A model generated the notes under the pieces. It ran no database searches. It saw only the letters and a list, made by a program, of their open reading frames with translations, and was not told the DNA's origin. Below, piece by piece: positions 4,785 to 58,927 of a stretch of DNA of 64,000 nucleotides. Position 1 is the stretch's first letter; each line of letters opens with the position of its first letter. The stretch is from Patescibacteria group bacterium (GTDB lineage Bacteria; Patescibacteriota; Dojkabacteria; J137): the NCBI GenBank assembly GCA_016861265.1, contig BOLA01000001.1, positions 934,150 to 998,149 of the forward strand, read 5' to 3'. The translations under genes were made by a program, and so were the position numbers.

Positions 4785-5858
4785 TTACTTAGTCGGTTTC
4801 TCATCCTCCTGTAATGGGTGAAAGTCATGGTGCGATTTTTCAGCAAACTTATCTGAGGCATGAACATACCTAGAAGTTGTTTGTAAGGAAGAGTGACCTA
4901 ATAATCTTTGAATTGCTACGGGACTTGCGCCTTCTTCGGCAATATATGTGGCAAAGCCATGCCTAAGGCTGTGGGCAGATGTTGGAACAATTATTCCAAG
5001 CCTAGTTCTGTATTCTTTAATCTTCATTTGAATGTAATTTTGAGAAAGTCTTATTAGATAGGGATTATTGGTCGCTTTTCGTGTACCCTTGGTTGGAACG
5101 AACATTGCAGGAAACTCATCAGTTCTATCTTTCAAGTATTCTTCTAAGAATTCCTTAGCTCTATGGGTAAGGTATACGAACCTTTGTTTCTTACCTTTAC
5201 CTAGTATATAAATTCTATCGTCTACTACTCTCCCATCTTGAAATTTAATCTGTTCCCGATTCAAATTTACTACCTCAGAAATTCTCATACCTGTGGAAAA
5301 TATCAATTCCAGTATTGCCCTATTTCTTATTTTTACAATTGGATCTTCTTCAAAGTGAGTTGGGCATTCAATTAAATCTACAAGCTCATTAAATTCAGCA
5401 ACCTGCTTTTCTTTCTTCTCAGCCTTAATTAATTTTATTGCAGACGGAGCAATTGGTGATGGTTTATCGAAATCCACCAAAAAAGTTAAATAAGATCTTA
5501 ATGCTGAAAGCATTCTGTTTACACTATTATCTGATAACTGACCCTTGTACATAGCCTTTTTTACCTCCGAAATATTATTTTGTGACTCTTCAATATCGGC
5601 CTGTGTTAACTCCATATTCTCTTTGTATTTATGAAGAATGGGAATATAATTTTGTTCTCGTAGAAATCCTTTATATTCGCTAATTGTCAGCTTATCAATT
5701 TTGCTAAATGGAGTTTCAATGTAGTATAAAAATGCTGAGAAAATTTCTAGGTCTCGACCGTAGTTATCTAATGTTTCCTTTGAATAGTTATTATTCTTAA
5801 GATTAAGTAAATATTCTCTTAGAAAGTCTAATTTGTAAGGGTTAGAAATATCGGTCAT
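4785..5858 (-). CDS. tyrosine site-specific recombinase (XerC/XerD-like integrase family)
   Basis: 357 aa; C-terminal HSLRHGFATYIAEEG…LLGHSSLQTTSRYVH contains the R…HxxR…Y catalytic signature. Confidence 0.8.
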   Translation of the reverse strand: MTDISNPYKLDFLREYLLNLKNNNYSKETLDNYGRDLEIFSAFLYYIETPFSKIDKLTISEYKGFLREQNYIPILHKYKENMELTQADIEESQNNISEVKKAMYKGQLSDNSVNRMLSALRSYLTFLVDFDKPSPIAPSAIKLIKAEKKEKQVAEFNELVDLIECPTHFEEDPIVKIRNRAILELIFSTGMRISEVVNLNREQIKFQDGRVVDDRIYILGKGKKQRFVYLTHRAKEFLEEYLKDRTDEFPAMFVPTKGTRKATNNPYLIRLSQNYIQMKIKEYRTRLGIIVPTSAHSLRHGFATYIAEEGASPVAIQRLLGHSSLQTTSRYVHASDKFAEKSHHDFHPLQEDEKPTK

Positions 5859-5937
5859 GTTTATATAATACAGTACAAACTTAATATTCTAAATAGTAAG
5901 TCTTGCGTGTATTAACATTAATTGCAATAATCACCAT

Positions 5938-7485
5938 ATGAAATTACCTACAGCAATAAAAATACCCAAATTTGTAAAATTACTTATTTTAGGTCTGATA
6001 ATAGTTGGCTTTTTAAGTAGATTACTAGGAGCTTTTATAGATCCTGATATGTGGTGGCATATTAAACTAGGCGGAGATATTATAAATGGGCAGTGGGTTA
6101 ATACCTTAACATTTACTTGTACTGACTATATATGGATAAACCATTCATGGTTATCCGATGTTCTAATCTATCAGATTAATACTCTGCTGGGTTTTCAAGG
6201 GTTAGCAATTTTCTTCGCATTAATTTTTTCTGGAGGAATTCTATTCAGCTTACTTTCTTTGAAACTTGTTTTAAAGCAGTACAAAATTAAGAATTCCGTA
6301 CTGAGTACTTTACTATACATAGCCTTCTTTACTTTACTCTTAAGTTCATTTATAGCAATAAGACCGCAGGTCTTTACCTTCCTGTTCTTTAATGCCTTAA
6401 TATTTTTCTTACTTAAATTTTACTATGCAAAATCAGTAAGGTTTATTTCTTTAATTCCATTCTCGTTGTTTTTTATATTGTGGGTAAACTTGCATGGAGG
6501 ATTTGTTATAGGCATTGTATTGACTGGTATATTCATTACTGCAATATTTTTTGAATTCCTTTTTAAACTATTTAACAGGCAGCAGGAAGAAGCCAAGCTA
6601 CTCCTAAGTAAAATTAAGTATTTATTTGTATTTATAATCATTTTTCTTATATCAAGTCTTATTAATCCATTCGGATTAGATTTATGGAAGGAAATATTTA
6701 CACTTGTATTGGGCAGCAATAATGCCAACTTTATTACAGAATGGAAGTCCATAAACATTAAAGATTCTTATGGTTTATTCTATTTTATGTTATTTGTAGG
6801 AACGCTACTTCTGCAGATTGTAAATAAAAGTAGCAACCTATTAAGATTACTGATGGTTGTAGGTCTTGGATTGCTCTCACTTTATTCAATTCGTTATATC
6901 CTTCCTGTAAGCGGAATAGTCCTTCTAGTCCTGTTTATAGAAGCCAATATTCTATTCGAATGGCTTTTAAATAAAATCTTAACAAAGGATAAAGATATTT
7001 TAAGACTTTTAGCTATTCTTAAATATGTATTGGTAATTACAATTGCATTGGTTTCGGCCATGAGCGGTTATATAGGAATCGCATTCTTTACCACTTTGAA
7101 TAATACTAACGAGGCTGCGGATTTGCTCTACCCGACAAAAGCCAAGGATTTTCTAGAAGAAAATAAAGATGAATATTCAAATCTAAGATTCTACAACACT
7201 TATGTGTGGGGCGGATATCTTGAATATACCCTCCCGGATTACAAATGGATAATAGATGGAAGAATGCCTGAATGGCACTGCAAGGGTATGGTTAGAAGCA
7301 GTATTATGCTGGATTACATCGAGGTAGAAGATCTAGGCTCAAACTGGAATTTGGTCTTAGAGAAACAGAATATTAGTGGCTTGATTATAAAAACAAATAG
7401 TATTTTGTATAATGTTATTAATACAAGCAGCAACTGGAATAAAGTATACACCGATGAAACTGCAACAATATTTATTAGAAATTAA
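5938..7485 (+). CDS. polytopic membrane protein, possible GT-C-type glycosyltransferase
   Basis: 515 aa, >10 TM helices; acidic DPD in first predicted external loop; family assignment is an inference. Confidence 0.4.
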   Translation: MKLPTAIKIPKFVKLLILGLIIVGFLSRLLGAFIDPDMWWHIKLGGDIINGQWVNTLTFTCTDYIWINHSWLSDVLIYQINTLLGFQGLAIFFALIFSGGILFSLLSLKLVLKQYKIKNSVLSTLLYIAFFTLLLSSFIAIRPQVFTFLFFNALIFFLLKFYYAKSVRFISLIPFSLFFILWVNLHGGFVIGIVLTGIFITAIFFEFLFKLFNRQQEEAKLLLSKIKYLFVFIIIFLISSLINPFGLDLWKEIFTLVLGSNNANFITEWKSINIKDSYGLFYFMLFVGTLLLQIVNKSSNLLRLLMVVGLGLLSLYSIRYILPVSGIVLLVLFIEANILFEWLLNKILTKDKDILRLLAILKYVLVITIALVSAMSGYIGIAFFTTLNNTNEAADLLYPTKAKDFLEENKDEYSNLRFYNTYVWGGYLEYTLPDYKWIIDGRMPEWHCKGMVRSSIMLDYIEVEDLGSNWNLVLEKQNISGLIIKTNSILYNVINTSSNWNKVYTDETATIFIRN

Positions 7486-7495
7486 TGGAGCTCAC

Positions 7496-8839
7496 ATGTT
7501 GAACACACAGTTAAAAACAATATTAGATTTTGAATATAATAGGCAACATAATACGCTAGACTTGATTGCTTCCGAAAACTATACATCCAAAGCGGTAAGG
7601 GAAGCGGTAGGCTCGATATTTATGCACAAATACTCAGAAGGATATCCTGGAGCGCGTTATTACGAAGGTAATGAATATATTGATCAGCTTGAGATATTGG
7701 CAATAAATCTTGTTAAAAAAGTGTTTGAGTTACCACAAGATTGGGGAGCAAATGTACAGCCTCTAGCTGGTTCAAATGCAAATCTAGCTGTTTACAATGC
7801 AATTCTTAACCCTGGAGATAAAATTTTAAGTATGTATTTACCAGATGGAGGGCACTTGAGTCACGGTTGGAGCTACGGAACAAAGGAGGAAAAAGCCAAT
7901 GAGGATGTGAATTCTCCACTATATAGAGGCGGAAGCCGAAAAGTAAATATTGTATCAAAGTTCTTTAATGTTGTTCAGTATAAGACTGATCCCTCAACTT
8001 TTCTAATTGATTACGATAAACTTGAGCAGCTTGCCCTACAGGAGAAACCCAAGTTAATTATTACGGGTGGAACAGCTTATGTAAGGAATATTGATTACAA
8101 AAGGGTTGCTGAGATAGCAAAAAAGGTAGGTGCATATTACTTGGCAGACGTAGCGCATGAGGCAGGTTTAATTGCGGGCAAGGTTTTAGAAAGTCCAATC
8201 GGTATTGCTCATGCAGTTACCTTTACAACACATAAAACACTAAGAGGACCAAAGGGTGCAGTAATTTGTGCTAATCAAGGCATTATTGAGAAAATAAACA
8301 AATCTATTATGCCTGGACTTCAAGGTGGTCCACATAATGGAACGATTGCTGGTATTACGCAATGTTTATTCGAAGCAGATACCGAAGAATTTAGACAATA
8401 CTCGGCTCAAATTTTGGTTAATGCGAAAGTATTAGCTCAGGAGCTGACAGCAAATGGCTTTAATCTTATTACAGGCGGCACCGATAAGCATGCTATCTTA
8501 ATAGATTTAACAAATAAGAGTATTGGGGGAAAATTTGCCTCAATAGCCCTTAATGCAGCCGGGATAGTAACAAATATGAATACTATTCCTTACGAAACTA
8601 AATCCCCAATAAATCCTTCGGGACTTAGACTGGGCACACCATCAGTAACAACAAGAGGCTTTAAAGAAGAACAAATGAAACTAGTTGCAGAGTATATAAA
8701 TAAGGTAATTGATATAGCAAGTGAAGTAGATAATTCAAGTGTAGAGGCCTTTAGGGAATTGGTAAGTTCGAATTCACAAATAAAAGCCATTAAACAAAAG
8801 ATAATGGACTTGTGTACTCAGTTCCCATTGGGTGAATAA
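7496..8839 (+). CDS. glyA: serine hydroxymethyltransferase
   Basis: SENYTS…, THKTLRGPKG PLP-lysine motif; ATG at 7496 with upstream GGAG; the ORF track's earlier start overlaps the previous gene. Confidence 0.9.
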   Translation: MLNTQLKTILDFEYNRQHNTLDLIASENYTSKAVREAVGSIFMHKYSEGYPGARYYEGNEYIDQLEILAINLVKKVFELPQDWGANVQPLAGSNANLAVYNAILNPGDKILSMYLPDGGHLSHGWSYGTKEEKANEDVNSPLYRGGSRKVNIVSKFFNVVQYKTDPSTFLIDYDKLEQLALQEKPKLIITGGTAYVRNIDYKRVAEIAKKVGAYYLADVAHEAGLIAGKVLESPIGIAHAVTFTTHKTLRGPKGAVICANQGIIEKINKSIMPGLQGGPHNGTIAGITQCLFEADTEEFRQYSAQILVNAKVLAQELTANGFNLITGGTDKHAILIDLTNKSIGGKFASIALNAAGIVTNMNTIPYETKSPINPSGLRLGTPSVTTRGFKEEQMKLVAEYINKVIDIASEVDNSSVEAFRELVSSNSQIKAIKQKIMDLCTQFPLGE

Positions 8840-10822: not shown

Positions 10823-11125
10823 GAGGTATATACTGGATATATATTAATATTGATTGAGTGGGCTAACCCATTAATGAGTATTAATATACTCGATCTTTGA
10901 CAACTGTATTTTACAGTTGTAGAAAATTCTTAATTAATTGTATGGCGCAAGTCTGCAATCTTTAGGAAGATTCTCTCAACTATTGCTTTAATAGTCCAAG
11001 TACTCGCTATGGGTAAATAGTTAATAAGGTTAGCTGTTTACCCGTAGTGGAGTACATCCTTAAGGGTACTCGACGCGGTAGGGCATTTGCCCGACAAATC
11101 TAGTTCGACTCTATGGAGGACAGTC

Positions 11126-12220
11126 ATGTTCAACAACAATCGTACGGCTCGTATCGTGATGCTGCTGGTTCTCGTAATCGGCAGTGTCTTCACCAGTGTG
11201 ATGAGCGTCTTCGCGCAGGATGTTGCTCCGGTTTACCCGGTCAACGACCCCGCGAAGTGCGACTTCACGTTCGCGTACAACGGCAGCGGCGGCTGGAATG
11301 TCCAGCGCTACCTTCAGGACAACGGCGATGGCATCGTTCTCGTTACGACGCAAGAAGGTTGGGGGGAAGTGACTTCGGACACTCCCTTCACCGTCTTCGT
11401 CGGCACGTGGGAAGACGCTTCGCAGTCTGTCGTGAATCAGGGCGCAGGCGTTCTCGCAGTGGCTGAAGAGAACCGTTTCGCGTATCGCTTCGGCGAGGAT
11501 GCCAAGCTGGCAGTCGGTCAGGCGCTCGTTATGGTGGCAAACTGCACGCAAGGCGTGGCAGTCGATGCCCCGGCAGCGTTCCCGCCCAACGACGCGGTTT
11601 GCGATCCCACGTTCTGGCGCGAAGGTTCGGACAATCTCGGACGCAAGTTCGTTGACGGCTCTCGCTTGCTGCATTTCGCGGCGGGCGAAGTTGACGACGC
11701 GGCTGTTGGTTCGAACGTCCCGTTCCTCGTATTTCGCGGCATGATCGATGGCACGGGCAACCTCGGCTCTCCGGTTCTGGAATACAGCTACTCCCCCGAC
11801 GGCACGACCTTCAAGTACGTGATCTCGGCGGCGAATAAGCTGGCGCAGAACGAAGGACTGATGGTCGTCTGGCCCTGCCTCAGCGGCGCTGAACACGACG
11901 GGTTTATGACCCACATCACCACCGTCCCGAATGTGGACTGGTGCGGCGCTCACGTAATGGCGGCGGGTTCGACTGAAACCGTCCCTGCCAACTGCGTGGT
12001 CTCCGGCGATGTCAAGGTCAACGGCACGGCGCTGTACGACAACGTGGAAGACACGGGGTTGGTGGTTGCCATTGGTAGCAACCCGGTTGAAATCTACGCT
12101 GAGTGGGGCGCGAGCATTTGGCCCGCGGGCACTGTCCCGCAGACCGCCCACGATGCGTTGGTTCTGACCGGCTGCGCCGATGCGCTCGGTTGCCGCGTTG
12201 TTACGGTGAGTAACCAGTAG
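11126..12220 (+). CDS. secreted hypothetical protein on a ~60% GC islet
   Basis: Start ATG 11126 preceded by GGAGGACAGTC; signal peptide …SVFAQD; composition ~2x the background GC; full-length antisense ORF (11111..12241) is a GC artefact. Confidence 0.6.
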   Translation: MFNNNRTARIVMLLVLVIGSVFTSVMSVFAQDVAPVYPVNDPAKCDFTFAYNGSGGWNVQRYLQDNGDGIVLVTTQEGWGEVTSDTPFTVFVGTWEDASQSVVNQGAGVLAVAEENRFAYRFGEDAKLAVGQALVMVANCTQGVAVDAPAAFPPNDAVCDPTFWREGSDNLGRKFVDGSRLLHFAAGEVDDAAVGSNVPFLVFRGMIDGTGNLGSPVLEYSYSPDGTTFKYVISAANKLAQNEGLMVVWPCLSGAEHDGFMTHITTVPNVDWCGAHVMAAGSTETVPANCVVSGDVKVNGTALYDNVEDTGLVVAIGSNPVEIYAEWGASIWPAGTVPQTAHDALVLTGCADALGCRVVTVSNQ

Positions 12221-12264
12221 CAGCGATCCGAACCTGACCAAAGCAATAGGCGAGAAAAGAGTAA

Positions 12265-12876: not shown

Positions 12877-15800
12877 ATGTTAAAGATGAAAAAGAAATCA
12901 CCTTTATTCAAATTGATAAATCCTATTTGGAGTCGTAAATTTATAATTATCCTCTTTGTTCTATGGATTCTTATTTGCATAGCAAATTTTAGCCCGGACA
13001 CATTTTTAACCGGCTGGGATAATCTTCACCCTGAGTTTAACTACTCAATGAATTTAAAGAGGCTACTAACAAGTTCCTGGGCTGAGTATCAAGGTCTAGG
13101 CGCACCCGGTGCCCACTCACATGCTGCAGAAATTCCTAGAATGTTTATAGTGGGTATTTTGAACTTAATTTTTGAAACTAATCTAGTTAGGTACATTTTT
13201 ACCTTTATAACTCTGATTATTGGAGTAATAGGTATTTATTATCTGGTCAACAATATCTTCTTAAAAAGAAAAGAAAAGAAATTAAGAGAGTTTTCGGCAT
13301 TTGCAGCAGCACTTTTTTACATGCTTAATGTGGGTACTGTTCAGCACTTTCAAGCACCCTTTGAAATGTTCAATGTTCAATATGCATTACTGCCCTGGCT
13401 TATAGTACTTGCAATTAAATTTCTAGAGACAAAAAAATACAAATATTTACTATATTTTTCTGTAGTGACTTTTTTTGCTGCACCAATGGCTTATGCAGTT
13501 ATGCTATGGATTGCCTATTTTGGAGGTCTCACAATATTCTTGCTTCTAAACCTTGTATTTCAACGAAAAAAGGATTTAATAAAACCAAGTATTTTTCTTT
13601 TATCCGTCACTATTCTAGTAAATCTATTCTGGTTAGTACCAAACTTATATTTTGTATTCAATCATAGCAATTACGTACCAACTGCAAAAACGAATCTTAT
13701 TTTTTCAGAAGAAGCGTTTTTAACGAATCAGAAATATGGAAACCTGGTAGATATTTTCTTGAACAAGGGGTTCTTGTTTGACTGGCAAATTAGAAATCCA
13801 AATTACACTTTTGAACCTATTATGGGTAAATGGGATAGTCACATTGATAATCCGATTGTATTATCAATAGCCTTACTAAGCTTTGCACTTATTGTTGTGG
13901 GCATACTCTACTCAATTTATAGAAAACAGAAGTATTTAATTCCATTGATTGGTGTACTTGTATTTGCAGTTATCGTGATTATGGGTACTAATCCACCATT
14001 AGGAGGGGTTTGGGAAGTGTTAGTTGCTAAGATATCGGTGCTGCAAGAAGCAATTAGGTTCCCATTTACCAAATTCTCTATTTTATTTATATTTACTCAA
14101 ACGGCCTTTCTAGGCTTGGGTACCTATTCTGCAGCAAGATTAATTACAAAGAGAATTCACTTTCAATATGGTTCAATTTTTGCATTGCTATTTTTACTTC
14201 TAATATCTGTAGTCTATTCTCTTCCTACATTCCAAGGTAACTTTATTAATAAATCCCTTAGAATTGATATACCAAACGATTATTTTGAATTATTTGATTA
14301 TTTTAAAGATCAGAATAAGGCAGAAAGAATTGCTAACTTTCCTGTAAATACTCTTTTCGGGTGGTTTTATACCGATTGGGGGTATCAAGGATCGGGGTTT
14401 CTTTGGTATGGAATAGAACAGCCAATCTTAGATAGAGATTTTGATAGATGGTACACAACATTAGAAGATTATTACGACAGCGTAAGTCAAGCTGTATATA
14501 CAAACGATGCAAATTCATTAAAAGATGTTCTTAAAAAGTATGCAATTGATTGGATAATAATTGATGAACATGTTGTATCTTCCAGCGAAGATAACAACTA
14601 TTCTTTAAATCCTGATCTCGCATCGTCAGAAATGGCCTATAAGGAAACAAAGGCTTTGCTTGAAAAAATTCCTGGAGTCGAGCAAAAAGCGGTGTTTGGA
14701 AAAATTTATGTCTATAAAATATCGGGCCTTGATACAGATAATTCTTATGTAGATGTTCTAAATAACGATGCAGAAGGTCAGCCAATAGAAAGTAAGAATG
14801 CTTTTATCGAGGATAATTTTGGAAGAAAAAGTGAGGAAACCTACTTTGAGAAAATCTCAAACGATAATGTTAATTATATAAATAATGTATATACGCTTAG
14901 CAACGAACCAGGTAACTTACATCTTCCTCAAATTTATGATTCCGAGAAGAGTATTCCAGTAAGAATTGCAGCTCGAAAGAACAGCTCTTCCGTTAATATT
15001 AGACTAACCTATCAGATTCCTACAATATACGTAAATGACCAAAGCACTGTAAATGTAACAAAAGTAAGAAACCTTAATTTCGATATTGCAAATCAGTCTT
15101 CCAATTATTACCTAGATATTAATAATCAACAGTTACTCCTTGAGGATATAGATAATGCGTGGAAGATATACGGTTTTATGGATGTAGCATTAGATAAGGA
15201 TTTAGTAGCAAACTTATATAATATTGATGATGGAGAAAACATTACATCAAGACTAGATCTGGAAAAAGCACAAATTAATAATTGTTCTGGTTCTGCCATA
15301 GCTAAAAGCTCTTCAGTTTCTTTTGTTAATGATGTTCTTAACTTTAGAAGCACTGGTGAAAACATTTGTGTCGAATTTAAAATTAGCACCTTGAATACTG
15401 TTAATAGTTTGTATCGACTTGAGATGGAATATAAAAGTAATCAGGGAGTTATCGGGGACGCATGCATAAAATTTGACGCAGGTTGTGTTAATACAAAAGA
15501 ATTTAGGAGCGATTATCTGCCTACTTTCTGGTATAAATTTAATACTTTTGCAAAAGATGAAGACTCCAATAATTTTAGTACTGCGTTAGTATTCAATAAC
15601 TCATCTCCAGAAAATACTGCATCCATAGGTTATAGAAACGTAAAATTATATAGGTACGAATTGGATGATCAGGTGGTAATAAAGCTAGAAGATATCAAGA
15701 ACGATCTACGTTTTGCTAATACCGATATACCTATAAAACCGATAAATACCAAACTTACCTTCAAATTTATTCTACCGACTAGTAAAATTTATAATTTTGA

Positions 15801-16734
15801 TTACACTGCTCTTCAGCAAATTTTATCTTTAACGGCAAAGGATTGTAAACCATACGTAGATTCAATAGAGCTTGATAGAAGTCTTGATTCTGTAAATAGA
15901 CAAATTGATTTTAAATCTATAGATGGATTTAACTGTGATAATCTAAATTTGTACAATATTAATCTAAAGAATGGTTTCTTAATTAATATTGAAGGGGAAA
16001 ACAAGTCAGGTCCAGGATTAGTGTTAAATGTAAGCGACTTTTACTATAAGAAGGTATATTACACGAATAGACTTCCTCAGAATTCTAATTTTAGCGAATA
16101 TTTAACTATCCCTAATTTAATTGATTCCGCTTCTAATGGTTTGAATATTTTTATTAATAATCAATCAGTTGGTAACAAAGAAACTATAAACTCCATTAAG
16201 AATATAACTGTAAGCCCAATAATTTATAGTTGGCTTTCAGGCATAGAATATCAGTCTGCTCCCCTATTTAGCTCAGATAATAGCGTGATTAGTGTAGATA
16301 AACTTACTACGACAAATTACAAAATTGAGTTGAATCCATCAAGTTCTGATAGAATACTTAAATTCAATCAGAGCTACGAAGCTAACTGGCTAGCCTACGA
16401 CGATAAAGGTAATCTGCTTAATCGGCTAGGAACAGTAAATAGTAATACAGAAAAAGCGGAATGGAACAACTATTGGATTCTTCCGGCTGGAGTGTCGGGA
16501 GTCTTTATTGAATATAGAACTGAGACTTACCAATATTTAGCGTACGTGATAGTCGCATTCTTATTTGTGGTTCTTACCGTTGCATCTGCATGGCAAAGTA
16601 ATAGGTATATTATTTTTGTTACCCAAATTAAAAAAGCATACAAGAAACAAAGAAGAAAACACATGCTTTTTGTCGAAAGAAATATTGAGCCGAAACTAGA
16701 CCGATTCAAGAAGTTTAATAAGAAAGATCTCTAA
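12877..16734 (+). CDS. giant (1285 aa) membrane protein: N-terminal ~12-TM GT-C/YfhO-like domain, large extracytoplasmic domain, C-terminal TM anchor
   Basis: Uninterrupted ORF in an AT-rich genome; topology inferred from hydrophobic segments; family assignment is an inference. Confidence 0.6.
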   Translation: MLKMKKKSPLFKLINPIWSRKFIIILFVLWILICIANFSPDTFLTGWDNLHPEFNYSMNLKRLLTSSWAEYQGLGAPGAHSHAAEIPRMFIVGILNLIFETNLVRYIFTFITLIIGVIGIYYLVNNIFLKRKEKKLREFSAFAAALFYMLNVGTVQHFQAPFEMFNVQYALLPWLIVLAIKFLETKKYKYLLYFSVVTFFAAPMAYAVMLWIAYFGGLTIFLLLNLVFQRKKDLIKPSIFLLSVTILVNLFWLVPNLYFVFNHSNYVPTAKTNLIFSEEAFLTNQKYGNLVDIFLNKGFLFDWQIRNPNYTFEPIMGKWDSHIDNPIVLSIALLSFALIVVGILYSIYRKQKYLIPLIGVLVFAVIVIMGTNPPLGGVWEVLVAKISVLQEAIRFPFTKFSILFIFTQTAFLGLGTYSAARLITKRIHFQYGSIFALLFLLLISVVYSLPTFQGNFINKSLRIDIPNDYFELFDYFKDQNKAERIANFPVNTLFGWFYTDWGYQGSGFLWYGIEQPILDRDFDRWYTTLEDYYDSVSQAVYTNDANSLKDVLKKYAIDWIIIDEHVVSSSEDNNYSLNPDLASSEMAYKETKALLEKIPGVEQKAVFGKIYVYKISGLDTDNSYVDVLNNDAEGQPIESKNAFIEDNFGRKSEETYFEKISNDNVNYINNVYTLSNEPGNLHLPQIYDSEKSIPVRIAARKNSSSVNIRLTYQIPTIYVNDQSTVNVTKVRNLNFDIANQSSNYYLDINNQQLLLEDIDNAWKIYGFMDVALDKDLVANLYNIDDGENITSRLDLEKAQINNCSGSAIAKSSSVSFVNDVLNFRSTGENICVEFKISTLNTVNSLYRLEMEYKSNQGVIGDACIKFDAGCVNTKEFRSDYLPTFWYKFNTFAKDEDSNNFSTALVFNNSSPENTASIGYRNVKLYRYELDDQVVIKLEDIKNDLRFANTDIPIKPINTKLTFKFILPTSKIYNFDYTALQQILSLTAKDCKPYVDSIELDRSLDSVNRQIDFKSIDGFNCDNLNLYNINLKNGFLINIEGENKSGPGLVLNVSDFYYKKVYYTNRLPQNSNFSEYLTIPNLIDSASNGLNIFINNQSVGNKETINSIKNITVSPIIYSWLSGIEYQSAPLFSSDNSVISVDKLTTTNYKIELNPSSSDRILKFNQSYEANWLAYDDKGNLLNRLGTVNSNTEKAEWNNYWILPAGVSGVFIEYRTETYQYLAYVIVAFLFVVLTVASAWQSNRYIIFVTQIKKAYKKQRRKHMLFVERNIEPKLDRFKKFNKKDL

Positions 16735-25886: not shown

Positions 25887-25920
25887 GAATTTGTTAGTCA
25901 TTGGGATACTATAGGCTATT

Positions 25921-26934
25921 TTGGTATACGAGTTGTATAATAGAATAATGCTATTGGAATTTACACAAAAAGGAATCTACTGTGAGAAGGGTAATTTTTA
26001 TATTGATCCATCAGCTGCTGTTGATTACGCACTGGTAACTCATGCACATTCGGACCATGCGCGAAGAGGTTCCAAAAACTATCTTGCTCATAAGCACACT
26101 GCTCCAGTTTTAAAATTAAGACTTGGGAAACGCTCTGTAATTCAAGAAGTTGAGTATGGTCAGGAGATTAATATAAAAGGCATCAAAGTTACTTTTTACC
26201 CATCGGGCCATGTAATTGGCTCTGCGCAAATAAAAGTTGACGATGGAAACGAAGTCTGGGTAGTTGCAGGTGATTATAAATTAGAATCTGACAATATTAC
26301 TCAACAGTTTGAACATATAAAATGTACACATTTTGTAACGGAATCAACATTTGCCAAACCTAATTTTTCATGGAAGGCACAAACTGAGATATTCACAGAA
26401 ATGAATGATTGGTGGGCTAGAAATAGTTCAAAAGGAGTCACTAGTGTAATGTCTGCTTATTCTTTGGGTAAATCTCAAAGAATATTAAAAAACATAGATA
26501 GTTCAATTGGTAAAATTGTTGTTCATGATTCAATAGACGAAACAAACGATATTTTTAGAAAACTAGGTTTTAATTTACCCAAAACGTACTTATTCAGCGA
26601 AGTAAGCAGGCAAGATCTAAAGAATGCACTGGTAATAACTCCTTCATTTAGCAATTTAAATAAATTTGAAGACAAACTTGAAGGCTATGTAATGGCCAAC
26701 GCATCGGGGTGGATGCAAGTACCATGGTACGTTTCAAAATCTTTAGATAAGGGTTTTGTTATATCGGACCATGCAGATTGGAATGGTTTAATAAAAGCAG
26801 TAAAAGAAACACAGGCTCAAAATATATTTGTTGTGCATGGTTTTACAACTTACTTTGCAAAACACTTAAATACTCTTGGTCTAAATGCCATGTCTATAAC
26901 AGATAAAAAACTAGATCAGCTTGCACTTTTATAG
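25921..26934 (+). CDS. MBL-fold beta-CASP hydrolase, likely ligase-associated DNA-damage-response exonuclease
   Basis: THAHSDHARRG metallo-beta-lactamase motif near the N-terminus, ~335 aa size and the neighbouring PdeM gene. Confidence 0.55.
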   Translation: MVYELYNRIMLLEFTQKGIYCEKGNFYIDPSAAVDYALVTHAHSDHARRGSKNYLAHKHTAPVLKLRLGKRSVIQEVEYGQEINIKGIKVTFYPSGHVIGSAQIKVDDGNEVWVVAGDYKLESDNITQQFEHIKCTHFVTESTFAKPNFSWKAQTEIFTEMNDWWARNSSKGVTSVMSAYSLGKSQRILKNIDSSIGKIVVHDSIDETNDIFRKLGFNLPKTYLFSEVSRQDLKNALVITPSFSNLNKFEDKLEGYVMANASGWMQVPWYVSKSLDKGFVISDHADWNGLIKAVKETQAQNIFVVHGFTTYFAKHLNTLGLNAMSITDKKLDQLALL

Positions 26935-27016
26935 TAATACTTTTGGCACACTTGCATTTTCTAAAGTTTGGGTAGAATATAAAATTATTCCATCAATAGT
27001 TTATAAGGAGTCTAAG

Positions 27017-27319
27017 ATGACTACCTTTGGTGCTGTAGAATATAAGGGTGATCCTTGGAAAGAAGGTTCTTCACCTTTTGTTAATGCAGCAACACAGGTT
27101 CAAATAACTGAGCAGACTGATCATGCGCTCTATCTGCTCTACTGGAATCTAGACATAGGTGGAACCCCTATCCCACAAGATGTTAAGGATCTTGCTCTAG
27201 TGGAATGGGAAAGAAGATATCCATTTAGATGCTCACAGACAGATAGCTGTGAGTGGTGGGCAGGATGGATGAATGATGTTGTGAACCGCAGGTACGGTGT
27301 TTATACTAAGTCTGCATAG
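27017..27319 (+). CDS. small hypothetical protein (islet gene A), paralogous to gene B
   Basis: Start MTTFGAVEYKG with SD AAGGAG; shared motif EWERRYPF vs gene B EEWRKRYPEG; ~45% GC; own terminator (27329..27353). Confidence 0.5.
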   Translation: MTTFGAVEYKGDPWKEGSSPFVNAATQVQITEQTDHALYLLYWNLDIGGTPIPQDVKDLALVEWERRYPFRCSQTDSCEWWAGWMNDVVNRRYGVYTKSA

Positions 27320-27424
27320 TAGCTACAGAAGCGGAAGACAGAGTCTTCCGCTTAAATTACTGCAATTAATTTCGGAATTCCAACAATTTTTGTTAACATT
27401 ACTTACTTTACCTGAGGAGGTAAT

Positions 27425-27694
27425 ATGTTTCCCTTAATCACTGTCGTAGGCAGGGAAGGCAGTCAAGGTGCAGTGCTGAATGACTTTAGAACTAGAGTCC
27501 CCATTGCACAACAAAATAACTTCGGTCTTTTCGCAATTATGTTTAGCTGCGAAATTGACGGAGTTGCCGTTACATGCGAAGTTCAAAGGGCTGCAGCTGA
27601 GGAATGGAGAAAACGCTACCCAGAAGGTGTATCGAAGGATGCAAAGTCGTGGGAATTTTCTTCAGACCAAAAAGCTAATGAACTGTTGGATTAA
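27425..27694 (+). CDS. small hypothetical protein (islet gene B)
   Basis: 89 aa; SD GAGGAGG; own terminator (27704..27727). Confidence 0.5.
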   Translation: MFPLITVVGREGSQGAVLNDFRTRVPIAQQNNFGLFAIMFSCEIDGVAVTCEVQRAAAEEWRKRYPEGVSKDAKSWEFSSDQKANELLD

Positions 27695-27773
27695 GCATGT
27701 TTTAAAGAGGGCTTCCTCGCCCTCTTTAAGTATATTCTCATGATATAATTATATAGTACTGTGTGGAGGTGAT

Positions 27774-28103
27774 ATGAAGGCCTATCATCCAGATGCAGAA
27801 TTTCCCGTAATAGGGAACTGGCAACAGGCAACTACTCAAGAGTTGCTTGATGCATTGAATCATTCCAGACCGTTCGTAATCGAGGGCGTACTAGAGGACT
27901 TCGATGGAGAGAACACTGGACACGAAACATTCTGGGCTTATAGGAGTGAGGGTTCGAATAAAATCGAGTACATCGAAAGTGCCAGCATTGCTTTTGATCA
28001 GGCGATGATGTCTCCTTACGAGTCGACTCGATACGACTTCGAGAACTACTTCGGTTATGTTACGGAGGAAGGTGTACTTTTTCTCTACTACATAACAGCA
28101 TAA
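27774..28103 (+). CDS. small acidic hypothetical protein (islet gene C)
   Basis: 109 aa; SD GGAGGTG; own terminator (28109..28134). Confidence 0.5.
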   Translation: MKAYHPDAEFPVIGNWQQATTQELLDALNHSRPFVIEGVLEDFDGENTGHETFWAYRSEGSNKIEYIESASIAFDQAMMSPYESTRYDFENYFGYVTEEGVLFLYYITA

Positions 28104-28155
28104 ACAAACCCGAGACATTGCGAAATGTCTCGGGGTAAGTTAATTAGAATGATAA

Positions 28156-28782
28156 AATATATTCAATATTGGTTATTTAGGTTGTATTAATCTTCAAATT
28201 AAGGATCACAATTTTACACTTAGTTCAAATAGAACAATTTTTTGGGAGAATAAGTCAGCCCTATTACTATCAGATATTCATGTAGGTGGTCGAACAGCAA
28301 TTCAAACTGATATCTTAATTTCAAATTTTAAAAAGGCCTTGCAAGAGTTCGAATTTAATAAGTTGATAATTTTAGGAGATTTATTCGATGCATCAGCCAA
28401 TATAAAAGAAAAACAGATTTTTTCAGACTTTCTTAAGACACTTGATACAAATATTGTTTTAGTTCTAGGTAATCATGACAGGCTTTCAGAAGAAGAATAT
28501 AAAGGGTATGGAATAAAAACGGTTAAAGATAGTTTAAAAATGGACATGTTTTACTTGACCCATAAGCCTACAGACTCTAATAATATTAATATTCATGGAC
28601 ACATTCACCCTGGCTACTACAAAAGAAGTCTCTTAGTTAGAAATAAATTGCCTTGCTTTGTAATTGAAGATAATTCAATTTGTTTACCAGCCTTCGGTGG
28701 CGCTACAGGAAAGAATTCTTTTGTCCCGCTTACTCAAAGAAAAGTTTATGTAATTAAGAATAATTCAGTTAAGCTCTTGTAG
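28156..28782 (+). CDS. pdeM: ligase-associated DNA-damage-response endonuclease PdeM (calcineurin-like metallophosphoesterase); start codon unresolved
   Basis: LLLSDIHVGG…ILGDLFDA…VLGNHDR…HGHIHPG phosphoesterase motifs. The frame is open from 28156 but has no ATG/GTG/TTG before the TTG at 28339, which lies after motif I. Confidence 0.6.
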   Translation, partial: NIFNIGYLGCINLQIKDHNFTLSSNRTIFWENKSALLLSDIHVGGRTAIQTDILISNFKKALQEFEFNKLIILGDLFDASANIKEKQIFSDFLKTLDTNIVLVLGNHDRLSEEEYKGYGIKTVKDSLKMDMFYLTHKPTDSNNINIHGHIHPGYYKRSLLVRNKLPCFVIEDNSICLPAFGGATGKNSFVPLTQRKVYVIKNNSVKLL

Positions 28783-29487
28783 TTCAGGATTGTATACCTG
28801 AAGACTATTGAATAAAAGCTCTTCAATAATTTTTGCATTTGCTATATTTAGAGTCCTGATCCCATATGCTTTTTTTAGGCTAGAATCCTTTAAGTCAACG
28901 CTTATTAGGAATCTAAAAAACTTATTAAAGTAGTTACCATCCCACAAATATATTGATAATAGTTCAGCAATGTCTACAATCATAGGATTTTTTGAGTGTT
29001 CAATTGAATCATGGAAACTGCCGTACAACGTATAAAACCTTTTATCTAAATTAAATTGAGTTTCTGCTGTATTTAATAATGATTTAAAACTATTTAAATT
29101 CTTAGTTAACAACTCGTGATAAATGCAAACACATATCTGTTGAAGCAATCTATATTGTTTTAATGTATTATTGTCAAAACTGTTAAAGTCGAATAATTCT
29201 CTATCTATTGTTTTCAGGCTATCGTCTGCTATACCCCAATTAATTTTGTATATTGAACGATTGTTTTCGGTATTAATTGTTAGATTCGATCTATCAGATT
29301 CACTATTTGTATTTATCTCTATTCTCTTTTGTCGTAACAATACAACTATAAACTTGTTTACTATAGGTCTGTCCTTTCTAAGCTGAGAGAAAAGATCATC
29401 TTTAAGGCTTTCTAGTTCCTTATTTATAATTTCGTTTAATGAAATAACCATATTTATACAATATGAAGAAAGAATGTTTGACTCCAC
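28765..29487 (-). CDS. hypothetical protein
   Basis: 240 aa ORF; possible later start at MVISLNE (29451) to avoid overlap with the next gene. Confidence 0.4.
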   Translation of the reverse strand: MESNILSSYCINMVISLNEIINKELESLKDDLFSQLRKDRPIVNKFIVVLLRQKRIEINTNSESDRSNLTINTENNRSIYKINWGIADDSLKTIDRELFDFNSFDNNTLKQYRLLQQICVCIYHELLTKNLNSFKSLLNTAETQFNLDKRFYTLYGSFHDSIEHSKNPMIVDIAELLSIYLWDGNYFNKFFRFLISVDLKDSSLKKAYGIRTLNIANAKIIEELLFNSLQVYNPELQELN

Positions 29488-31283
29488 AGCCAGTTGACTG
29501 TATTCCCATCCCTAGAATATGTATACATATTCCACATATACGTAAACCAGTAACCTCCCATTACTGCAGTATTACCATTTGCAGTTTTAAACCAAACTTT
29601 CTTAACTCTTTTCGAAGGGTCTCTCTCTAATTCAATTTTTGTAACCGCCTCACCAAGATCATTCTGCATATTTCTTGTATAGTTACTAAACTCTTGTCCA
29701 TATGGTCCAAATGAAGAAGGATTATTGATAACAAAGTCTATCATTTCATTCACTTGATGCATCGTGTAGTTTGATGTTTTATAGCTCCAATTCTTATTTC
29801 TGCCACCAGGTAGTGGTACAGCGAACGCAGAGTCATTAACAGACTGTAGATATGGATAATAAGCCCCAGTTCCATCGTATTCTTGGAACATGGTATCCGA
29901 ATTTGCAGTACCCCAACCTTGGTTGTTATCAGCTGAATATAGTGAATTGATTATTTTCTCACTATGAATACTATTAGAGTGTTTAATTACAATACCTCTT
30001 GTTTCCAAAGCTGCCCATGAGGAGTAATTGGAACCATTATATACCTGGCATGATGCCGTAGAACATATGTTTGGATTATAGAGTGCATAAGTTCTGTAAG
30101 CAATTACCTGTGCTTTAATAGCTTCTTCTGGCCAACAATCCCATAGCAAATTTGGATTATCAATGACATATTTATTTGGATTTTCAGAAACTTGTTGTGT
30201 TGAGCCACAGGCTCTTCCGGGTACTTCTCCTTGACCCGCAACATATTCTTCTATATTTCGTGGTCCATATCCGCTAACATTTACTGTTCTATTTTCATAA
30301 CCACCTTCTAGGTATACACCATTATAATAGAACGCTAGTATTTGAGACGCAGACATCCCAGTTTGTGCTGCACCAAACGCACCCCATTGACTTAAGCCTA
30401 CTTGATGTCCTTGACTATTTATATCATCACCAAACCCACAAAAATATATAGAATTATTTAAATTGTTATCGTCATATATTCCGCATCCCCCAACGCTTTG
30501 TCCACCACCACCTGTTTGTTGTGCAATCTCAGCTTGTCTTCTTAACGCCTCGCTCTGTGCTGCACTTAATTCATTTATCGTCCTGTTTATAGCAGAGATT
30601 TCACCTTCCAATTCCCCAATCTGATTCCCCCCAGAGGCTATAACATAATTATAATATGCAATTGCTTCTTCAATCTGCTGTTTCTTTGCTTCTAGTTCGT
30701 TCTTCTTGTTTTCAAGACTACCCACTGCCGATTCACTGGCATTAATTTGATTGTTTAAGTCTTCAATTTGTGTTCCAACCTCTTTAATGCCATCATCGCT
30801 ATATCCTAATATTTTAGATGCTAGAAACGTTCCCATGTTATTCATTCTAGGATCGTCCAAATTAGCAGATGAAACAAAACTATCTTTTTTTATTCTCCAT
30901 TGCTGGTAAGCTGAATCGAGCGCCCCTTGTTGTTCAACAATCAGTTTTTGCTTAATAGACTCTTTTAAATCATTTTCCTGTTTTAATAGCTCAAGTTGCT
31001 TCTTATTTAATTCCAATTCCTTTACATTAGCTTCGAGTTCAGCCTGAAGTTTTGGTAGTCCTTCTTCGGCATTCGCTAGGTTTGCCTGACTATTTTCAAT
31101 TTCCGTTTGAAGGTTCGAAATATCATTTTTAGTAGCCTCCAGTTGGGCTTTCTGATCGTCAATCTCCTTTTGTATTTCTGCCGCTGTTTGTGCTTGAGGC
31201 GTGATATTAATGAAGGGCGTAAAACCTACAGCTGCAATTAAGAGAATTATAAGAAGTTTTTTAAGTGTAAATTTAATAGTCAT
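29454..31283 (-). CDS. secreted coiled-coil protein with C-terminal SpoIID/LytB-like domain (peptidoglycan remodelling)
   Basis: Start MTIKFTLKKLLIILL (signal); ~250 aa heptad-rich coiled coil; C-terminal GHQVGLSQWGAFGAAQTGMSASQILAFYYNG matches SpoIID/LytB. Confidence 0.6.
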   Translation of the reverse strand: MTIKFTLKKLLIILLIAAVGFTPFINITPQAQTAAEIQKEIDDQKAQLEATKNDISNLQTEIENSQANLANAEEGLPKLQAELEANVKELELNKKQLELLKQENDLKESIKQKLIVEQQGALDSAYQQWRIKKDSFVSSANLDDPRMNNMGTFLASKILGYSDDGIKEVGTQIEDLNNQINASESAVGSLENKKNELEAKKQQIEEAIAYYNYVIASGGNQIGELEGEISAINRTINELSAAQSEALRRQAEIAQQTGGGGQSVGGCGIYDDNNLNNSIYFCGFGDDINSQGHQVGLSQWGAFGAAQTGMSASQILAFYYNGVYLEGGYENRTVNVSGYGPRNIEEYVAGQGEVPGRACGSTQQVSENPNKYVIDNPNLLWDCWPEEAIKAQVIAYRTYALYNPNICSTASCQVYNGSNYSSWAALETRGIVIKHSNSIHSEKIINSLYSADNNQGWGTANSDTMFQEYDGTGAYYPYLQSVNDSAFAVPLPGGRNKNWSYKTSNYTMHQVNEMIDFVINNPSSFGPYGQEFSNYTRNMQNDLGEAVTKIELERDPSKRVKKVWFKTANGNTAVMGGYWFTYMWNMYTYSRDGNTVNWLWSQTFFLHIV

Positions 31284-31372
31284 AGTGCTGCTAACAGTAT
31301 AAAGACTATAGAATGGTTTGGCAAATTGCGGAGGAATAGGGCGAAGTTTTACTTCGCCCCTCACTTGGTTGA

Positions 31373-54156: not shown

Positions 54157-55656
54157 TTGAATAATAAGAGAAATTTTAAGAGATCCAGATTCGATAGAAC
54201 ATATAAGGACTCTTCTGCTCCTAGAAACTCGAGCAGTAACAAAAGAGATTCAACAAATTATTTAGGAGATGTAACTTACTCATCTTCACGAAGAGCTAAG
54301 CCTGCTTTTGATAAAAAGAGCCGAGGTTCTGATTCCAGGCCTTATAGAGGAGGAACTTCAAGTTATGCTGTAAACAGATCAGAAAATACTCAAAAGGAGA
54401 GTTTTAACTCTAATCCTTCGAGAATTGATAGATCTTTAAACAGAGATAGATACCCTAGATCTAACGGTAGATTCGGTGAATCGAGAGGAAGATTTGGAGG
54501 TAACAGACCTGTAAGACCATACGGAAGAGGTAGAATGGATAATAAGAACTTAGATGAGATTATTAGATTTATTAAGTCTTCAGTAAACAAGCCAAAAGCT
54601 ATAGAAGTTAAAGAGGAAGAAAAATTTGTAGGTGAAATTCAAGATGTAGTTACAGAGAAAGCTTTATTAAAGAACTTATTAAATAAGGGCTTTACAAAGA
54701 CTACACCTATTCAAGCAAAGGCTATTCCTGTAATTAGAGAAGGAAAAGATATTCTAGGTTTAGCAAATACTGGAACTGGTAAAACAGCAGCATACTTAAT
54801 TCCATTAATAGAAGAAACTCTTAAAAAGAGAACTAAGACTCTAATTTTGGTTCCAACAAGAGAATTAGCTATTCAGATTAAGAATGAAATTTATCTATTT
54901 ACAAAGGATATGCCAATAAGATCAGAGATTATTATTGGTGGAGCCGACATGTATAGGCAAATTCAAAATCTAAGAAGAAATCCTGACTTTGTTGTAGGTA
55001 CACCAGGTAGAATTAAGGACCAGAAGCAAAGAGGCAACATTGTAATAAGTAATTACGACAATATTGTTTTAGATGAAGCAGATAGAATGCTTGATATGGG
55101 TTTTATTACAGAAATTAAAGATTTACTAAAAGAAAGAAAGGCAGATGTTCAAAGTTTATTCTTTAGTGCAACTATGGATAAAAAGGTTGCTCTATTAATT
55201 AATGAATTCTGTAAAGCATATTCTACAATTGAAATTAGCCAACAGAAAGTTACTGATTTAATTGATCAGAAGATTGTTACTTTTAAAGATGACGAAGCAA
55301 AAATGGAGAAAGTTGAAGAACTTTTAGGTAATTTTGACAAGTCAATTATCTTTGTAAATACAAAACATAGAGCTGATAAGTTAATGAAACATTTAAACGA
55401 AAAAGGCTTTAGAACAGACGCTTTACACGGAGATAAAAGTCAGAATTTAAGACAGAGAATCATGAGAAATTATAAAGACAATAGATTTGACCACCTAATT
55501 GCAACAGATGTTGCAGCAAGAGGAATAGATGTAAAAGATGTTTCTCACGTTTTGAATTACGATGTCCCAGCTACTGTAGAAGATTATATTCACAGAGTAG
55601 GTAGAACCGGAAGAGCCGGAAAAGTCGGAATAGCAGTAACGCTAATTAGAGAATAA
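54157..55656 (+). CDS. DEAD-box ATP-dependent RNA helicase with ~125-aa N-terminal Arg/Ser/Gly-rich extension
   Basis: Q-motif GFTKTTPIQ, motif I ANTGTGKT, DEAD (LDEADRML), SAT, HRVGRTGRAG. No ATG before 54535; the open frame from the TTG at 54157 is far longer than expected by chance in AT-rich DNA. Confidence 0.8.
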   Translation: MNNKRNFKRSRFDRTYKDSSAPRNSSSNKRDSTNYLGDVTYSSSRRAKPAFDKKSRGSDSRPYRGGTSSYAVNRSENTQKESFNSNPSRIDRSLNRDRYPRSNGRFGESRGRFGGNRPVRPYGRGRMDNKNLDEIIRFIKSSVNKPKAIEVKEEEKFVGEIQDVVTEKALLKNLLNKGFTKTTPIQAKAIPVIREGKDILGLANTGTGKTAAYLIPLIEETLKKRTKTLILVPTRELAIQIKNEIYLFTKDMPIRSEIIIGGADMYRQIQNLRRNPDFVVGTPGRIKDQKQRGNIVISNYDNIVLDEADRMLDMGFITEIKDLLKERKADVQSLFFSATMDKKVALLINEFCKAYSTIEISQQKVTDLIDQKIVTFKDDEAKMEKVEELLGNFDKSIIFVNTKHRADKLMKHLNEKGFRTDALHGDKSQNLRQRIMRNYKDNRFDHLIATDVAARGIDVKDVSHVLNYDVPATVEDYIHRVGRTGRAGKVGIAVTLIRE

Positions 55657-55730: not shown

Positions 55731-56141
55731 ATGAGTCTGCTGACAGTTAATTACAGCGGTTCTGCTATGGCTCAAGCGCTTCCCAAGCCAGTGGGTCATG
55801 GCAATCCTCGGATAATGCTTTCCGAGTTTGGTAGTGAGGTGGAAACCGAGCTGATCAAGGCGCTGGGAAATCAGACCATTCTTCCTGTGGGCATTATAGG
55901 TACTAGTGGCGCACAGCCGTTTGGTGTAAATGCCCGCAATCGTGGAAGTGTTGAATTGCTTTTGGAACTGATTTCCCCTGTGGAGCTAGATTCCGAGGGT
56001 GTTCATGAACTTGCCGTTATCATGAGGCGTGCTGTATTGGACCTATTCAATACGCCACGTTATCAGGGCGGCAGTTATGAGCAGCTCGAGGTTCTGTCTA
56101 TGGTGGTTGTTCACAGGGGTGTATTAGTTTCTAAAGGCTGA
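55731..56141 (+). CDS. hypothetical protein on a GC-rich islet (~50% GC)
   Basis: 136 aa; extended -10 TGTTATAAT and SD AAGGAGG upstream; hairpin GCGGGAACTGC-AAGC-AGTTCCCGC at 56157..56182. Confidence 0.45.
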   Translation: MSLLTVNYSGSAMAQALPKPVGHGNPRIMLSEFGSEVETELIKALGNQTILPVGIIGTSGAQPFGVNARNRGSVELLLELISPVELDSEGVHELAVIMRRAVLDLFNTPRYQGGSYEQLEVLSMVVVHRGVLVSKG

Positions 56142-58495: not shown

Positions 58496-58927
58496 ATGCC
58501 AGTAGTAAGTGGTTTGTGGGATCAAGGACGAGTGTTCGCAGCACTCACTTGTAATCCCGAAGAGCAGCATACACAAGCCGAGGCACTAATGCTTGAGTTG
58601 TTTGAGGCAGCGCAAGCTGTTCTAGTCAAGCAACTTGAGGTTGTGCCGACGGGTATTGTGTTCTTCTGCGAGAAGCAGCCGATGCTCACCATAAATTCGT
58701 TCCCGCTGGAATTCGCCATTCGCAGCACTAAAAGCAAGGAATGGGGAAACAGGGATGATCAGCAAGAGATTATCCGAAAAGTCCTCAAGCGAATGCGGAA
58801 GGTGCTTAGGGCGTGGACTGAAGCCAAAAGGGCTAACTTTAGCGGTTGGCAGATTGGCATGGAGCTCAGCTTTATCGAGCTGTTCGCTACCAGCGAGGCG
58901 GTGGAAGAAGAAGCTGCTACGGAATAA
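58496..58927 (+). CDS. hypothetical protein on a GC-rich islet (~52% GC)
   Basis: 143 aa; upstream TGTGATATAAT extended -10 and SD AAGGAGG. Confidence 0.45.
   Translation: MPVVSGLWDQGRVFAALTCNPEEQHTQAEALMLELFEAAQAVLVKQLEVVPTGIVFFCEKQPMLTINSFPLEFAIRSTKSKEWGNRDDQQEIIRKVLKRMRKVLRAWTEAKRANFSGWQIGMELSFIELFATSEAVEEEAATE

Follow-up and report, generated by a model that had tools for sequence, protein, structure and literature searches.

This analysis concerns a five-gene locus in the window, by which we mean the whole 64-kb stretch of contig BOLA01000001.1 (Patescibacteria group bacterium) under study. The locus comprises an exonuclease gene (exo), three small orphan genes which we name s1, s2 and s3 in window order, and the metallophosphoesterase gene pdeM. 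[quoted passage not shown] The locus would then represent the most reduced stage of a Saccharibacteria-specific, ligase-less derivative of that cluster. This gene cluster for nucleic-acid repair, Exo-Lig-Lhr-Core-MPE, has been described in Pseudomonas putida (Ejaz and Shuman 2018, as cited in PMC7470946; Ghosh et al. 2020, PMC7826289).

Both enzymes, and the cluster from which they derive, are already known. New are the ligase-less clade-specific architecture, a documented order of loss, three orphan families and a PdeM with the substitutions K38G and H81D. As far as sequence can tell, two independent near-cognate start states under selection may be added to these, namely AUU here and CUG in a sister lineage.

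The reduced cluster and its relatives

The window is AT-rich (about 34% guanine plus cytosine, GC) and exo, s1, s2, s3 and pdeM all lie on its plus strand. Cluster parts are named by their NCBIfam families: exo TIGR04122, ligase TIGR04120, Lhr TIGR04121 and PdeM TIGR04123. Related loci and contigs bear the numbers L001 to L106, and the relatives of the locus are Candidatus Saccharibacteria contigs. The window together with L083, L084, L085, L086, L089 and L092-L095 is referred to as the window clade.

The exo gene (25948..26934, plus strand) encodes a 328-residue ligase-associated DNA damage response exonuclease of the metallo-beta-lactamase (MBL)/beta-CASP fold. Its product scores 378.2 bits against TIGR04122 (cutoff 325) and covers profile positions 1-320 of 326. 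Membership of another beta-CASP family was considered and rejected: the RNase J/CPSF-like identity which the first-pass annotation had raised as a doubt was checked, and aCPSF1 and RNase J score at most 40 bits. The assignment of exo and PdeM to the ligase-associated cluster, made in the same annotation, therefore stands, with exo above the TIGR04122 cutoff and TIGR04123 as the best family for PdeM. The open reading frame (ORF) of exo spans 25921..26934 and begins with TTG 25921; orthologues begin with MLLEFT, so ATG 25948 is the likelier start. The gene is strongly constrained relative to L084 (omega 0.04), and its nearest genomic relative is L003, an uncultured Candidatus Saccharibacteria metagenome-assembled genome, at 67% identity. 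A TATAAT box at 25936..25941 (plus strand) lies 6 nucleotides (nt) upstream of the exo ATG. This TATAAT-N6-ATG geometry recurs in L084, L086, L092 and L100, and the box could be the -10 element of a leaderless exo mRNA. Between cobW and exo the window lacks a VTT/DedA-family gene of about 650 bp which is present in L084, L086, L003, L099 and L101; only about 60 nt (25887-25947) separate the two genes here.

The canonical gene order, exo-ligase-Lhr-PdeM, was confirmed in a Flavobacterium locus (L025). The exonuclease search recovered 79 loci from outside Saccharibacteria; 71 of them contain the ligase, as do all 38 which bear PdeM. Neither the ligase nor Lhr was detected by phmmer or tblastn in the 64 kb, within which absence from the source strain is judged, and no remnant of Lhr was found there either. 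The only helicase match in the window is a DEAD-box RNA helicase at 54157-55656. The two absences had been noted at first reading and are borne out by these searches.

The relatives arrange themselves into a stepwise series. L003 and L099 show the order cobW-VTT-exo-Lhr-s3-s1-s2-PdeM with an Lhr of 800 amino acids (aa) that is intact in both; the L003 protein scores 893.9 bits against TIGR04121 (cutoff 850). L096-L098 have the same order with a frameshifted Lhr, and in L098 exo is split too. The Lhr sequences of L096 and L098 are 97-98% identical to that of L003, and two to three frameshifts are common to three independent samples. L096-L098 (positions about 5160-7560) appear to be a population caught while losing the cluster. 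Lhr is gone from the window, L084, L085 and L089 (exo-s1-s2-s3-PdeM), and L100 reads exo-s1-s3-PdeM, L092-95 exo-s1-(s3 remnant)-PdeM. Finally, exo is gone as well in L101/L102, where the order is cobW-VTT-s1-s2-PdeM. The loss of the helicase is thus documented by a frameshifted intermediate. No ligase was seen in any related Saccharibacteria locus, which indicates that the ligase-less state is old.

The genes flanking the locus are housekeeping genes, syntenic in all relatives. The window and L084 are ~92-95% identical overall, and the block from s2 to pdeM is better conserved between them than its flanks. A recent foreign island was considered and rejected, since the identity profile of the window against L084 is that of ordinary mosaic recombination.

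The missing start of pdeM

The pdeM frame has no stop between 28156 and its end at 28782, and the motif LLLSDIHVGG lies within it. Its first in-frame canonical start is the TTG at 28339..28341 (plus strand), which lies downstream of metal motif I (SDIHVGG, 28270-28290). The first-pass annotation had described just this situation: an open frame whose first ATG, GTG or TTG falls after the essential motif. Gene callers use TTG 28339 and produce 147-aa calls. We propose instead that the MPE-type metallophosphoesterase is encoded by 28186..28782 (plus strand), 198 codons beginning with ATT 28186.

Comparison with an orthologue which has retained a normal start locates the change. Protein P0001 of L083 is 90% identical, begins with an ordinary ATG and has 219 codons; this ATG corresponds to ATG 28125 of the window. 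Relative to L083 the window shows two 1-nt gaps, after 28147 and after 28161, which delimit the segment 28147..28162 (plus strand). As a consequence of the two gaps, neither ATG 28125 nor ATG 28149 shares the reading frame of the pdeM body. DNA alignment places the same gaps in the window, in its Logan copy L001 (no difference from the window over the 301 nt aligned at the pdeM 5′ region) and also in L084 and L085, which come from other samples and carry their own substitutions. Sequencing error, the correction of which might have restored a start, is therefore rejected: assemblies made independently agree in both indel states.

The frame downstream of the gaps stays intact and appears to be under selection. 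The pdeM sequences called as 147 aa comprise five distinct variants, 93-99% identical, all intact and with invariant catalytic motifs. Between the window and L084, both start-less, we count 6 synonymous and 3 non-synonymous substitutions (omega 0.13, P=0.004 against neutrality). In the 59 codons upstream of TTG 28339, comparison with L083 yields 12 synonymous and 2 non-synonymous changes (omega 0.03, the window and L083 branches not being separated), which indicates that the stretch evolved as coding sequence. A similar picture emerges independently in the Lhr-containing clade. There, pdeM of L099 starts with TTG, in whose place L003 and L096 carry a CTG, preceded by a stop three codons upstream; L003 and L096 differ by 12 synonymous and 8 non-synonymous substitutions (omega 0.16, P=1e-4).

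A candidate near-cognate start

The region preceding the proposed start contains an extended -10-like element, TGATAAAAT, at 28150..28158 (plus strand), which is kept in every lineage. The start position of pdeM is preceded, at a distance of 24-29 nt, by a TGnTAnAAT sequence in the window, L083, L084, L086, L089, L092, L003, L096, L099, L100 and L101. This element is retained whatever the frame of the ATG embedded in it: in L100 this ATG leads directly to a stop, and in L101 its A is replaced by T. The codon found 24-29 nt past the element is GTG in L100 and L101, TTG in L099 and CTG in L003 and L096. At the same position ATT is invariant in six window-clade sequences; in the window this is ATT 28186, 27 nt after the element. 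The spacer between box and ATT, at 27, 28 or 29 nt depending on the lineage, does not keep to multiples of three, which is what one would expect if it is non-coding. An AGG (28179-28181) stands 4 nt before ATT in the window and L084, the same spacing as for the GGAGG of s2 and s3.

Near-cognate initiation has precedents. In Escherichia coli AUU, AUA, AUC and CUG initiate at 1-2% of AUG, and infC and pcnB naturally use an AUU start (bioRxiv 10.1101/063800). The 198-residue product from AUU 28186 would have its first residue aligned with residue 5 of P. putida MPE. We propose the following scenario. The 1-nt indels would have severed both nearby ATGs from the pdeM frame while expression continued, translation now proceeding from the near-cognate AUU 28186 where sister lineages have GTG, TTG or CTG. 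Such a start would supply a potentially toxic nuclease at a low level. Weak initiation at AUU 28186 is the most likely solution that these comparisons suggest. The first-pass annotation had listed several: of these, an ATT start is favoured at 28186 and an ATA start (28159) is not, a history of 5′ frameshifting is shown, and pseudogenisation is possible although disfavoured by the selection tests.

The PdeM enzyme

TIGR04123 is the best family for PdeM; the match spans profile positions 2-205 of 207 and, with 132.2 bits, falls short of the cutoff of 150. The orthologues of L083 and of L099, in the sister clade, score 127 and 176.9, respectively. MPE enzymes form a clade of binuclear metallophosphoesterases for which Mn-dependent endonuclease activity on single-strand DNA is a defining trait. 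PdeM matches the crystallised P. putida MPE (6NVO/6NVP) with an E-value of 4e-19 and keeps all seven metal ligands as well as the general acid His113. Its motifs SDIH, GD, GNH(D), THKP and GHIHP align to D33, H35, D78, N112, H113 and the later histidines of the MPE.

Two positions deviate. PdeM has Gly in place of Lys38 and Asp in place of His81 (K38G and H81D in P. putida MPE numbering); in that enzyme Lys38 belongs to the surface that binds DNA, and His81 is essential for cleaving it. Among 38 other PdeMs, Lys is found at position 38 in all and His at position 81 in 36. The Gly and Asp are conserved in L083, L084, L086 and L092; L100 has Lys and Asp, and L003, L099 and L101 have Lys and His. 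SbcD-type nucleases carry GDxFD at the motif of His81. Both substitutions are also present in relatives with a normal ATG; they thus arose before the start was lost and do not indicate decay. Substrate handling has probably shifted, and the pattern looks like altered specificity.

A minus-strand orphan gene of 228-240 aa (28765-29487) is convergent with pdeM and has an 18-nt overlap with the 3′ end of the latter. This neighbour also occurs in the window-clade relatives L083-L095 and has no Pfam match.

Alternative readings of pdeM

Several observations weigh against a functional pdeM started at AUU. The AGG before ATT occurs in the window and L084 and is absent from L083, L086 and L092. An in-frame upstream ATG is found in three of the four window-clade lineages (L083, L086/89 and L092). 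By a rough estimate (~0.02) these in-frame ATGs are unlikely to arise by chance, which suggests that those lineages prefer an ATG start and that the allele of the window may be a defective one. The sequence ATGnTAnAAT is not enriched across the window (5 found, 7.9 expected). Only 9 substitutions enter the selection test between start-less alleles. Lastly, P. putida MPE no longer cleaves DNA when it carries the substitution H81A (PMC7826289), and the window protein has Asp81 and scores below the NCBIfam cutoff.

The main alternative is that pdeM is a young pseudogene: the 5′ indels would have removed the start, the rest of the frame would have yet to decay, and the locus would show the latest step of cluster loss. 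We regard this as a possibility to be reckoned with, albeit a less likely one than our preferred reading. No ATG, GTG or TTG lies in frame before metal motif I, and the intact orthologue of L083 needs two extra bases to use its ATG. The clade is decaying elsewhere, as the missing ligase, the frameshifted Lhr of L096-98 and the split (L098) or absent (L101) exo attest, and the protein itself falls below the family cutoff and is devoid of His81 and Lys38. However, at least five distinct start-less variants, up to 7% divergent, have acquired no stop or frameshift and keep invariant catalytic motifs. Moreover, omega between two start-less alleles is well below one, few as the substitutions are, and K38G and H81D are common to the normal-ATG relatives L083, L086 and L092.

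It is improbable that translation of pdeM begins at an upstream ATG and reaches the frame through frameshifting or termination-reinitiation. ATG 28125 and ATG 28149 are both conserved, and in the window and L084 the 21-codon frame which ATG 28125 opens has its stop at TAA 28188-28190, so placed that it overlaps ATT 28186 as AUUAA. Yet ATG 28125 is buried in a hairpin of -19.7 kcal/mol, and ATG 28149 belongs to the TGnTAnAAT element which all lineages keep irrespective of frame. From ATG 28149 to the conserved IKDH codons we count 49, 50 and 51 nt in the window, L083 and L086, respectively, which rules against a shared frameshift site. Very unlikely, in turn, is a truncated 147-aa protein with a non-catalytic role, read from TTG 28339: this is the first canonical start and the one used by every automatic annotation, but its product would lack the motif I metal ligands Asp33 and His35 and would leave the constrained 59 upstream codons outside the gene. 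Translation from AUU 28186 remains the reading we prefer.

The small genes

Between exo and pdeM lie s1 (27017..27319, 100 aa), s2 (27425..27694, 89 aa) and s3 (27774..28103, 109 aa), all on the plus strand. The first two are paralogues, as had been noticed from their EW(E/R)(R/K)RYP motif: s1, an orphan of a QxDxxL...EWxRRYP family, and s2 match in BLASTP at 3e-09 with 32% identity over 57 aa and read EWERRYP and EWRKRYP, respectively. The third is unrelated to them by sequence comparison and encodes a highly acidic orphan protein (net charge -14, isoelectric point (pI) 4.2). GC is 0.39-0.44 across ~26950-28150 and about 0.28-0.36 in the flanks, in agreement with the higher-GC stretch reported earlier.

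Each small gene resembles a self-contained cassette with a promoter-like element, a Shine-Dalgarno (SD) sequence and a hairpin. The SD sequences are AAGGAG for s1, GAGGAGG (27414-27420) for s2 and GGAGG for s3. Hairpins follow s1 at 27329..27353 (11-bp stem, no U-tract, -17.3 kcal/mol, z -5.9), s2 at 27701..27730 (-18.0 kcal/mol, z -5.6) and s3 at 28109..28134 (-19.7 kcal/mol, z -6.7), the last containing ATG 28125 in its 3′ arm; all are on the plus strand. A T-rich tail is present on only one of the three; the hairpin of s2 is the sole one with a terminator-like score, and a terminator scan was not above chance. The label 'terminator', which had been given to each hairpin, is therefore not demonstrated; the SD sequences and the hairpins themselves (z at most -5.6) are confirmed.

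The promoter-like elements of s2 and s3 resemble that of pdeM. An extended -10-like element, TGTTAACAT, lies at 27391..27399 (plus strand), 25 nt upstream of the s2 start, and is identical in L084; a consensus extended -10 element, TGATATAAT, lies at 27741..27749 (plus strand), 24 nt upstream of the s3 start. TGnTATAAT occurs 24-29 nt upstream of s3 in every lineage. The same type of element, where there is one, is found 25-43 nt upstream of s2; L089 showed none. We propose that s2, s3 and pdeM would each be served by a TGnTAnnnT extended -10 element 24-29 nt before the start. Rather than forming one operon, exo, s1-s3 and pdeM are probably each transcribed as a unit of their own.

Conservation of the small genes is considerable. 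The s1 gene is present in all seven related arrangements; omega is 0.12-0.33 for s1, 0.06-0.12 for s2 and 0.06-0.33 for the small genes overall, and their families diverge in step with exo and pdeM. Judged by sequence comparison, the three small genes are old, vertically kept and under purifying selection. Their base composition is equally persistent: in all lineages the small genes have a GC of 0.38-0.52 against 0.27-0.35 in neighbouring genes, that is, they are 10-20 GC points above their neighbours in every lineage, with a third-position GC (GC3) of 0.29-0.60 against 0.14-0.25. The contrast persists even where the PdeMs of two lineages share no more than about 43% identity. Distant s1-family genes in unrelated genomes are also GC-richer than their surroundings (L103 8001-8303, 0.47 against 0.40; L106 7001-7630, 0.66 against 0.51).

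The families are rare. A word-indexed profile search of 5.8 billion clusters (90% identity) recovered 10 clusters of the s1/s2 family and 6 of s3. An exhaustive profile search gave 46 s1/s2-family representatives with the signature QxD[YFW]xL ... AAxEWxRRYP, some of them tandem or fused forms. The six s3 members have net charges of -6 to -16, five of them -11 or lower, and a pI of 4.05-5.1. No match to s1, s2 or s3 was found in Pfam, NCBIfam, PHROGs or PADLOC, nor to s1 and s3 among GenBank phages by tblastn, nor to the s1/s2 family in IMG/VR by pattern scan, and two metagenome scans found nothing. The AlphaFold2 (AF2) model of s1 has a pLDDT of 84, and a fold search with it gave no match in the PDB or BFVD.

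These results bear on the proposal of the first-pass annotation that three moron-like genes had split a two-gene remnant. We consider a recent acquisition of the small genes, as phage-type morons or anti-defence genes inserted between exo and pdeM, very improbable. Their cassette architecture and their GC, 10-15 points above that of neighbouring genes, would fit such an origin, as would the similar GC-rich orphan cassettes elsewhere in the window and the one distant s1 relative (L105) whose surroundings are a phage-like array, made up of orphan genes that are co-directional. However, all three families already lie between lhr and pdeM in the Lhr-containing L003 and L099; they were inside the cluster before Lhr was lost and thus did not split a two-gene remnant. 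The search of the small proteins for phage or anti-defence relatives that had been suggested gave nothing in PHROGs, PADLOC, GenBank phages, IMG/VR or BFVD, no phage genes flank the locus, and no relative with an empty site, in which exo abuts pdeM, was seen among the related arrangements examined. Long residence in the cluster remains our preferred reading.

Do the small proteins act together with PdeM? A working or restraining relationship between them is conceivable, and we put it forward tentatively; the strongly acidic s3 is possibly a DNA-mimicking protein. On the other side, the link could reflect inherited synteny, and the three distant s1-family members with readable context (L103, L105 and L106) lie away from any PdeM. 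A bolder version is more speculative and, in our estimate, rather unlikely: s1/s2 and acidic s3 would be dedicated partners or inhibitors of a re-specialised K38G/H81D PdeM, the whole forming a stand-alone nuclease module that needs no ligase, helicase or exonuclease, is kept at a very low dose through AUU or CUG, and has a possible role in conflict with phages or a bacterial host rather than in classical repair.

Other features of the window

Three further GC-rich orphan genes were seen, at 55731-56141, 58496-58927 and 1676-2539 (GC 0.46-0.51; mean GC3 of genes 0.27). Of these, the first two are laid out as cassettes like s1-s3, with TGnTATAAT, AAGGAGG and a GC-rich hairpin. None of the three has a Pfam match or similarity to s1-s3.

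A 1.1-kb island at 11087-12241 reaches about 61% GC in surroundings of 34%, with ORFs of ~377 codons open on both strands. These overlapping ORFs have no Pfam match; the plus-strand product has an N-terminal signal or transmembrane segment and could be a recently acquired secreted protein. Downstream of the locus, the minus-strand gene at 29454-31364 encodes a SpoIID-domain protein. Its region 29400-30600 is 59-75% identical to L084, against 90-99.7% for the surrounding 20 kb, and corresponds to a hypervariable part of this SpoIID-like protein. For two long ORFs, 12877-16734 (1285 aa) and 5938-7485 (515 aa), Pfam gave no domain at E <= 1e-5.

Significance

Within one clade the reduction series of the Exo-Lig-Lhr-MPE cluster shows which parts can be lost and in which order: the ligase, then the helicase, then the exonuclease. 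An MPE-type nuclease and two small proteins persist, which points to a role of MPE independent of ligase and helicase and makes the small proteins new candidate partners of MPE. Furthermore, an apparently selected gene without a canonical start in an ultra-small genome is a target for start-site mapping. It also serves as a warning, as automatic annotation shortens pdeM to 147 aa.

Comparison with known systems

The small genes share several traits with prophage morons, namely a promoter-like element, an SD sequence, a hairpin and an atypical base composition. In contrast to morons, s1-s3 are located outside any prophage and have no phage homologues. They are also kept and selected across the whole clade, whereas morons are patchy among close relatives.

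With respect to its start, pdeM is comparable to infC and pcnB of E. coli. As in these genes, a near-cognate AUU stands at the expected start, and the product is plausibly needed at a low level. The variation of the pdeM start between GTG, TTG, CTG and ATT among sister lineages likewise recalls pcnB across phyla. Unlike pdeM, for which no comparable logic is known and AUU initiation is a prediction, infC is autoregulated via IF3.

[quoted passage not shown] The window exo is a full-length TIGR04122 equivalog, PdeM is homologous to the crystallised MPE, and sister Saccharibacteria lineages carry a TIGR04121 Lhr-Core between exo and PdeM. The window differs in that related loci have no ligase, Lhr is missing and three orphan genes stand inside. 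Moreover, its genes look individually promoted rather than operonic, and its PdeM is below the family cutoff, carries K38G and H81D and has no canonical start. Two-gene Lhr-Core-MPE clusters, finally, occur in many bacteria and archaea (PMC7826289). They resemble the window in that MPE is joined to repair partners without a ligase. There, however, the helicase is the constant partner of MPE, whereas here the helicase was lost and the exonuclease and the small proteins were kept.

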